From IMG/VR virus record IMGVR_UViG_2541047915_000012: a DNA stretch of 38,067 bases; one strand, given 5' to 3'. The stretch is from a virus (Duplodnaviria > Heunggongvirae > Uroviricota > Caudoviricetes). How positions within the stretch are numbered: position 1 is the stretch's first letter; each line of letters starts with the position of its first letter. A model generated the notes under the pieces. That model saw nothing but the letters and a program-made list of their open reading frames with translations. It did no database searches and was not told the origin of the DNA. The translations under genes were made by a program, and so were the position numbers. This document shows, piece by piece, positions 23,797 to 25,204 of this stretch.

Positions 23797-23868
23797 TGAA
23801 GTGGTTTACTGAATTTGGCCACCTGAACAGAGGTGATATGCTCACCTCAGAACAACACAGGTGCCATA

Positions 23869-24171
23869 ATGAAAAAAAGAAATTTCAGCGCAGAGTTTAA
23901 ACGCGAATCCGCTCAACTGGTCGTTGACCAGAATTACACCGTGGCAGATGCAGCCAGCGCTATGGATGTCGGCCTTTCCACAATGACGCGATGGGTGAAA
24001 CAATTACGTGATGAGCGGCAGGGAAAAACACCAAAAGCCTCCCCTATTACCCCGGAACAAATTGAAATCCGTGAGCTCAGGAAAAAGCTACAACGTATTG
24101 AAATGGAAAATGAAATATTAAAAAAGGCTACCGCGCTCTTGATGTCAGACTCCCTGAACAGTTCTCGATAA
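23869..24171 (+). CDS. orfA: IS911 OrfA (transposase N-terminal/regulatory protein)
   Basis: 100 aa [21 protein letters not shown]...; helix-turn-helix plus leucine zipper; contains A6G frameshift heptamer at 24120-24126. Confidence 0.85.
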
Positions 24172-24197
24172 TCGGGAAACTCAGGGCGCGTTATCCT

Positions 24198-25016
24198 GTG
24201 GCCACTCTCTGCCATGTGTTCGGGGTCCATCGCAGCAGCTACAAATACTGGAAAAACCGTCCTGAAAAGCCAGACGGCAGACGGGCTGTATTACGCAGCC
24301 AGGTACTTGAACTGCATGGCATCAGCCACGGCTCTGCCGGAGCAAGAAGCATCGCCACAATGGCAACCCAGAGAGGCTACCAGATGGGGCGCTGGCTTGC
24401 TGGCAGACTCATGAAAGAGCTGGGGCTGGTCAGCTGTCAGCAGCCGACTTACCGGTATAAACGTGGTGGTCATGAACATGTTGCTATCCCTAACTACCTT
24501 GAACGGCAGTTCGCCGTGACCGAGCCAAATCAGGTGTGGTGCGGTGATGTGACCTATATCTGGACGGGTAAGCGCTGGGCGTACCTCGCCGTTGTTCTCG
24601 ACCTGTTCGCAAGAAAACCAGTGGGCTGGGCCATGTCGTTCTCGCCGGACAGCAGGCTTACCATGAAAGCACTGGAAATGGCATGGGAAACCCGTGGTAA
24701 GCCCGTCGGGGTGATGTTCCACAGCGATCAAGGCAGTCATTATACGAGCAGGCAGTTCCGGCAGTTACTGTGGAGATACCGGATCAGGCAGAGTATGAGT
24801 CGGCGTGGAAACTGCTGGGATAACAGCCCAATGGAGCGCTTCTTCAGGAGTCTGAAGAACGAATGGGTGCCGGCGACGGGCTATGTAAGCTTCAGCGATG
24901 CAGCTCACGCAATAACGGACTATATCGTTGGATATTACAGCGCACTAAGACCGCACGAATATAATGGTGGGTTACCACCAAACGAATCGGAAAATCGATA
25001 CTGGAAAAAACTCTAA
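24198..25016 (+). CDS. orfB: IS911 OrfB (DDE transposase catalytic domain; expressed as OrfAB by -1 frameshift)
   Basis: 272 aa in the -1 frame relative to orfA, open back to the slippery site; DDE-type integrase core (...[13 protein letters not shown]...[10 protein letters not shown]...). Confidence 0.85.
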
Positions 25017-25204
25017 CTCGGTGGCCAGTTTTTGTTGACCACTTCAATATGACCGGCACGGTGTGCCATATCACGGACCGGCGGGTGTCTCGTTCACCTG
25101 ATTAACGCATCAGCCTGCGTATTCACCACAACGATAAGAGTACTGCGCGGCACCTTTCACCAATTCCGCGAGGTCTGCGGGTTCAATGCTCTTACCTGTT
25201 GTGC

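Follow-up and report, generated by a model that had tools for sequence, protein, structure and literature searches.

Insertion sequences of the IS911 type have been found in lambdoid phages at places where they lie antisense within an operon read by antiterminated polymerase. In phage SfII, IS911 is inserted antisense inside the late operon, downstream of Rz and ahead of the HNH, terminase and head genes, and 1.6 kb of antisense genes also lie between Q and S. This phage is inducible, makes particles and is infectious for three serotypes (PMC3772137), a precedent for late read-through that presupposes no secondary promoter downstream of the SfII IS. In phage Sf6, IS911 lies antisense in ninG, between pR and Q. 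Its deletion left the onset and level of late transcripts unchanged, and its removal resulted in a faster life cycle, an effect that was not exerted via transcription (PMC5630979).

Transcription of this kind depends on antiterminators that modify RNA polymerase. The antiterminator Q of phage 21 (Q21) loads on polymerase paused just after the late promoter pR', and forms a nozzle at the RNA exit channel that blocks pause and terminator hairpins, giving a complex that "ignores terminators" (Yin et al., bioRxiv 10.1101/651190). Moreover, transcription in the presence of Q proteins is processive and Rho-resistant, and suppression of polarity has been proven for lambda Q (PMC12360218). Our literature search gave no useful direct report of an IS located between Q and S together with expression data. 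Here, we describe such an insertion in a prophage that carries three copies of the same element.

The prophage and its Q cassette

The stretch of DNA that was analysed, 38,067 nucleotides in total and hereafter the window, can be assigned by its sequence to a CUS-3-type, P22-like lambdoid prophage of E. coli K1 type. It extends from inside the neuO heptanucleotide repeat to attR, followed by ~220 nt of host-side DNA. With CUS-3 (E. coli K1 strain RS218, CP000711) it shares the tailspike, the neuO end, the head genes, the lysis genes, Q, the leader and attR, at 98.5-99.9% identity across most of its length. The two differ in that the window has three IS copies and a truncated N, is without O, P, ninA and part of ninB, and carries an ant-to-ejection-protein segment (3635-10365) and ea-region segments unlike those of CUS-3.

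Several other elements were observed along the prophage. The phase-variable repeat of neuO, the capsule O-acetyltransferase gene of CUS-3, occupies positions 1-97 (GAGTCTT, which reads AAGACTC on the other strand); about 14 units are visible at the window start, where the repeat number and the ON/OFF phase are unreadable. The sar antisense RNA of the P22 immI region was detected at 4205-4271 (Rfam, 83.9 bits), at the start of ant (3302-4270), and the Rfam search of the whole window gave no other match. In the segment unlike CUS-3, an ORF for a ClpP-like protease is found at 4952-5488 (+) and another ORF at 5537-5986 (-), whose counterpart in the prophage of E. coli AH21I008 (NZ_CP196251.1, a blood isolate from Melbourne) is annotated as a YafO-family toxin; these two ORFs adjoining immI are possible cargo. 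Past attR, positions 37848-38067 match the AH21I008 region that holds torI, beside dsdC, so the prophage adjoins the remnant of another integrated element.

All genes of the late operon lie on the minus strand, and those of its start, together with the elements that control it, are as follows.

25785-25267, minus strand: Q antiterminator, phage-21 type, intact (Pfam PF06530, Phage_antitermQ)
25289-25260, minus strand: late promoter pR', TTGACA-18-CATAAT, overlapping the Q stop codon (11/12 in the promoter scan)
25209-25251, minus strand: tR' terminator, a 17-pair hairpin (25249-25215) followed by U6 (25214-25209); qut lies between tR' and pR'
23417-23094, minus strand: holin S, lambda-type, with a dual start (MKM), the first late gene after the IS
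23110-22634, minus strand: endolysin R
22637-22200, minus strand: Rz

The operon further holds the terminase, portal, scaffold, coat (14531-15784), head-completion and ejection genes and a 981-aa tailspike, and we agree with the preliminary description, as a matter of anatomy, that these late genes depend on the promoter next to Q. Q aligns over its full length with the Q21 structures 6JNX and 6P18 (E = 1e-91, ~88% identity). Both hexamers of pR' are identical to those of the annotated phage-21-like pR' of Sf6 and HK75, with 1-2 substitutions upstream of or between them, and the whole of pR', qut and tR' aligns with regions annotated as such in these two phages. Compared to Sf6, there is one substitution in the -35/-10 spacer between the -35 hexamer and the terminator, and one more upstream, while the sequence from the -10 hexamer through the U-tract is identical. 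The tR' hairpin folds with a dG of -20.2 kcal/mol (z -3.4 to -4.95). The window thus carries the sequence features of a Q21-type cassette, namely a Q21-homologous Q, a strong sigma-70 promoter, qut and an intrinsic terminator, and it aligns with the cassette of Sf6, whose annotation describes near-identity with phage 21.

It is downstream of tR' that the phages differ. In phage 21 and Sf6, two tRNA genes follow the terminator, unlike the CUS-3 type, which has a spacer of its own of ~540 nt, the target of the IS. Without the IS, this native untranslated leader between tR' and S measures 538 nt. The same interval is occupied by two tRNA genes in Sf6 and, in HK629, by an HNH gene; judging from these arrangements, it is a usual place for cargo.

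An IS911-like element in the late leader

We have identified in this leader a complete element, referred to as IS copy 1, with the following parts.

23797-25046, plus strand: IS copy 1, IS3-family, IS911-like, closest to ISEc52, 1250 bp (terminal-repeat pattern search)
23797-23833 and 25011-25046: left (IRL) and right (IRR) terminal repeats of IS copy 1, imperfect, ending TG...CA
23794-23796, no strand: left copy of the ATA target duplication, a single ATA in the CUS-3 empty site
25047-25049, no strand: right copy of the ATA target duplication, a single ATA in the CUS-3 empty site
23869-24171, plus strand: orfA, 100 aa, HTH_Tnp_1 (Pfam, 5e-14)
24120-24126, plus strand: A AAA AAG (A6G) motif for a programmed -1 frameshift that joins orfA to orfB, found by reading the sequence
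24198-25016, plus strand: orfB frame with an rve DDE integrase core (Pfam, E = 1e-31)

The length of 1250 bp follows from the start of IRL at 23797 and the end of IRR at 25046, and the terminal-repeat pattern is expected to match the window 0 times by chance. The frameshift motif has its counterpart in a RefSeq relative that carries the annotation "programmed frameshift". An orfA with a helix-turn-helix domain, an orfB with an rve domain and the A6G motif, together with TG...CA inverted repeats and a 3-bp target duplication, place the element in the IS911 group of the IS3 family. The preliminary description had simply called it IS911, a name that points to a close relative and misses the best-matching named element. 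RefSeq copies annotated as "IS3-like element ISEc52" are at least 99.5% identical to IS copy 1. It shares with both ISEc52 and IS911 the length of 1250 bp, 36-bp terminal repeats starting with TGAAGTGG, the A6G -1 frameshift joining orfA and orfB, the rve DDE domain and the 3-bp target duplication, but it is only 94.4-94.9% identical to elements annotated as IS911, with 94.4% for the RefSeq element, 94.9% for that of phage Sf6 and 94.6% for that of phage SfII. The IRL of the RefSeq IS911 is also different (TGAAGTGGCACA... vs TGAAGTGGTTTA...), the differences from IS copy 1 amounting to four positions, 9-12 (TTTA in IS copy 1 vs CACA in IS911). On these identities, "IS911-like, closest to ISEc52" is the accurate label.

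When the two flanks are joined with one ATA, the resulting 1439 nt, comprising S, the leader and Q, match CUS-3 at 100% identity. The position of the element and its ATA duplication, as put forward in the preliminary description, are borne out by the repeat search and by this empty site, and so are its distances and orientation: 162 nt separate the U-tract of tR' from the IS (~160 bp had been given) and exactly 379 nt separate the IS from the ATG of S, with the IS genes on the plus strand opposite to the late operon on the minus strand. A comparison with IS-free relatives, suggested along with that description, is provided not only by CUS-3 but also by 117 of the 5426 complete E. coli genomes, which carry the leader uninterrupted; in the best-matching genomes listed among these 117, no feature is annotated there. 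The ORF listing of the empty-site leader contains short unannotated ORFs, including a 68-aa ORF with a GTG start (+) that spans the insertion point. A coding function of the leader was considered and set aside, as it holds short unannotated ORFs and no annotated feature, and the leader is treated as non-coding. Likewise, no RNA family disrupted by the IS emerged from the Rfam search of the window or from a permissive search of the CUS-3 leader.

Three identical copies of an IS within 9.3 kb are a classic hazard for assembly, and repeat collapse or mis-joining might have placed the element where it does not belong. Nonetheless, the 3-bp duplication is perfect and surrounds otherwise uninterrupted CUS-3 sequence, and the left junction of IS copy 1 recurs in two independent complete genomes. 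On these two grounds the artefact was rejected, and we regard it as extremely improbable.

Predicted late transcription across the antisense element

The preliminary description expected that 1.25 kb of antisense IS DNA would be strongly polar. We consider that this inference was probably wrong and that strong polarity is not to be expected of an element lying after the Q-loading site, with no convincing terminator of its own and with the precedents of SfII and Sf6. In our best explanation, to which we give a probability of about 70%, IS copy 1 would be a neutral insertion in the leader and not the silencing lesion, and the decay of the prophage would have come about through other lesions. The copy would have arrived by plain transposition of an IS911-like (ISEc52) element, landing in a part of the late leader of a CUS-3-type prophage that is non-coding and dispensable, past the whole Q-loading cassette (pR', qut and tR'). 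In the lysogen, transcripts from pR' would end at tR' and thus the IS would lie in silent DNA, where it would be harmless. Q, if made, would load at pR' and produce an RNA polymerase resistant to terminators and to Rho, and this modified complex would traverse the antisense IS, 1.25 kb in length, and suffer no more than a modest loss. Antitermination by Q is less than 100% efficient, which counts against full read-through.

Two properties on which polarity would depend were looked for in the element. The first is a terminator in the transcribed strand. The late-sense (antisense) strand of the IS forms two weak terminator-like hairpins without U-tracts, with z values of -1.4 and -1.2 against shuffled controls, compared with -4.95 for tR' taken as reference; the hairpin count of this strand is not above that of shuffled sequence, and no convincing intrinsic terminator was detected in it. 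The second is an ordinary, unmodified polymerase. Since the IS begins 162 nt past tR', the polymerase arriving there in quantity would be Q-loaded, having escaped the terminator. A promoter scan of the IS on both strands, at the threshold of the tool, returned no promoter-like site, so the outward promoters inside the IS that the preliminary description proposed to look for did not appear. An IS-driven promoter for S was rejected on the same scan, which gave no such site directed inward or outward.

A strong polar block could also arise from Rho acting on 1.25 kb of untranslated RNA, from cryptic terminators or from collision of polymerases, and in that case IS copy 1 alone would silence lysis and morphogenesis. 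At 24890-24700 the antisense IS RNA is rich in C (33-35%) and poor in G (20-23%), and this stretch could be a Rho substrate, yet the 538-nt native leader is likewise untranslated and has equally C-rich patches, at 23713-23594. The IS is transcribed in the opposing direction, and convergent transcription from an IS promoter could interfere with late transcription. In addition, the growth of Sf6 benefits from removal of its IS911. On the other hand, the element lies past the Q-loading site of a cassette whose type of complex ignores terminators and resists Rho, it has no significant hairpins, SfII is infectious with an IS of the same kind and orientation in its late operon, and late transcripts of Sf6 are unchanged by the IS911 deletion. 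Even with the further decay discussed below, which would count in its favour, a block of this sort appears unlikely.

The elements in Sf6 and SfII are of the same family and length as IS copy 1 and, like it, lie antisense in an operon of antiterminated polymerase in a lambdoid phage. They differ in several respects. The IS of Sf6 lies in an N-dependent operon and not a Q-dependent one, that of SfII comes after the lysis genes and not before them, and both phages are infectious, whereas the prophage in the window has additional lesions that would be lethal. Within these limits, the two precedents would argue against a strong effect on downstream expression. The anatomy, the identity of the parts, the left junction in common with another genome and the lesions described below are shown directly by the sequence; read-through by the Q-modified polymerase is what we infer, from the homology of Q and from the Q21 literature, and the functional consequences of the lesions are likewise expected rather than seen.

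Other lesions and the order of insertions

The three IS copies are mutually 100% identical and in one orientation. The other two, and the gene interrupted by one of them, are listed here.

28338-29587, plus strand: IS copy 2, identical to copy 1, without target duplication (flanks cct / gtt)
31806-33055, plus strand: IS copy 3, identical to copy 1, with an ATG duplication, truncating N
31563-31805, plus strand: truncated N antiterminator gene, cut after residue 81 of 99

IS copy 2 lies in place of the N-terminal part of ninB, ninA, P and O. On the left it adjoins a C-terminal fragment of ninB (28099-28337) and on the right the equivalent of CUS-3 position 31831, in the interval between O and cII; the junction may be due either to an IS-mediated adjacent deletion or to recombination between two earlier copies. 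This copy is antisense between pR (30368-30341) and Q, and consequently a polymerase without functional N must cross it for Q to be expressed. The loss of 18 residues, caused by copy 3, would be expected to abolish the function of N. Moreover, a gp16-like gene for DNA transfer and ejection is frameshifted at a T8 run (8254-8261), which splits it into ORFs 8243-9121 and 7105-8082; at this site the AH21I008 prophage has T7 and a single 670-aa ORF. The T8 run could be either a true frameshift or a homopolymer sequencing error. The cI gene (30391-31041) is intact.

The prophage would therefore appear to be crippled elsewhere than in its late leader: by copy 3 in N, by copy 2 in O and P and on the path from pR to Q, and by the frameshift in the gp16-like gene. 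According to the preliminary description, the structural genes were intact but probably silent. Intactness does not quite hold, given the frameshifted DNA-transfer gene. Silence is likely to be true, with its cause in copies 2 and 3, that is in the truncation of N, the deletion of O and P and the IS between pR and Q, rather than in copy 1. Thus the late genes are probably silent because N is truncated, O and P are missing, an IS separates pR from Q and the gp16-like gene is frameshifted; the prophage is probably defective, not mainly through IS copy 1, to which the silence of the late genes is probably not due.

The order in which these lesions arose can be approached through the sister prophage of AH21I008. 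It differs from the window by 2 mismatches in ~21 kb (1 in 13,748 nt, 1 in 2,221 nt and 0 in 5,013 nt) and has the identical IS with the identical left junction of copy 1, and no other IS junction in common with the window. On the right side of this IS, there is a truncated O without a duplication, Q through P, with part of O, being deleted. N is intact in AH21I008, and a different ISEc52 copy interrupts ant. In ESBLEC_HM50, the left junction is as in the window; there, as in AH21I008, the match stops where the IS ends on the right, and the features under it include a "replication protein". In total, the left junction of copy 1 was found in 2 of the 5426 complete E. coli genomes, against the 117 with the empty site, and the right junction, on the side of Q, in 0 of the 5426.

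Because its left junction is the only IS junction common to the window and AH21I008, the earliest of the three is copy 1, probably the founding insertion, and the other lesions would therefore be later and lineage-specific. Copy 1 was probably the donor of copies 2 and 3, and the identity of the three copies fits a local spread from it. The comparison is a neat small-scale illustration of the sequence of events when an IS drives prophage decay and lineages diverge from one ancestor. That both lineages decayed further after copy 1 fits relaxed selection and is the point at which the polar block discussed above would gain some weight.

Perhaps the insertion of copy 1 was favoured by selection. 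By damping late transcription or lysis in part, it could have "grounded" the prophage, which would keep its cargo (the neuO capsule O-acetyltransferase and immunity) and lower the cost of spontaneous induction, before the element seeded further copies. The position of copy 1 as the first insertion, with the sole junction in common with AH21I008, would agree with this, and so would the pattern of the three copies, which hit regulatory or replication functions and spare cI, the tailspike and the neuO end. But the insertion is rare, with 2 of 5426 left junctions compared to 117 empty sites, which looks like drift in one clone, and local hopping of the IS accounts for the clustering without selection. 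We find selection on copy 1 quite unlikely, and the stricter form, in which it was the founding "grounding" event and measurably damped Q-dependent late transcription and lysis despite the Q nozzle, a little less likely still. If this were true, grounding would have stabilised a prophage retained on account of neuO and immunity, and local spread of the IS would have finished its inactivation; the locus would then offer a natural test of how completely Q21-type antitermination works on DNA that is untranslated and transcribed convergently.

Under the neutral reading that we prefer, the locus represents ordinary IS-driven prophage decay with known elements, namely ISEc52/IS911, CUS-3 and a Q21-type cassette. 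The main value of the finding is one of annotation, as it describes a CUS-3-type K1 prophage, a carrier of neuO, that is being dismantled by one IS family. To assess inducibility in such a prophage, one would look to the truncation of N, the absence of O and P and the frameshift in the ejection gene, and not to the IS in the late leader.
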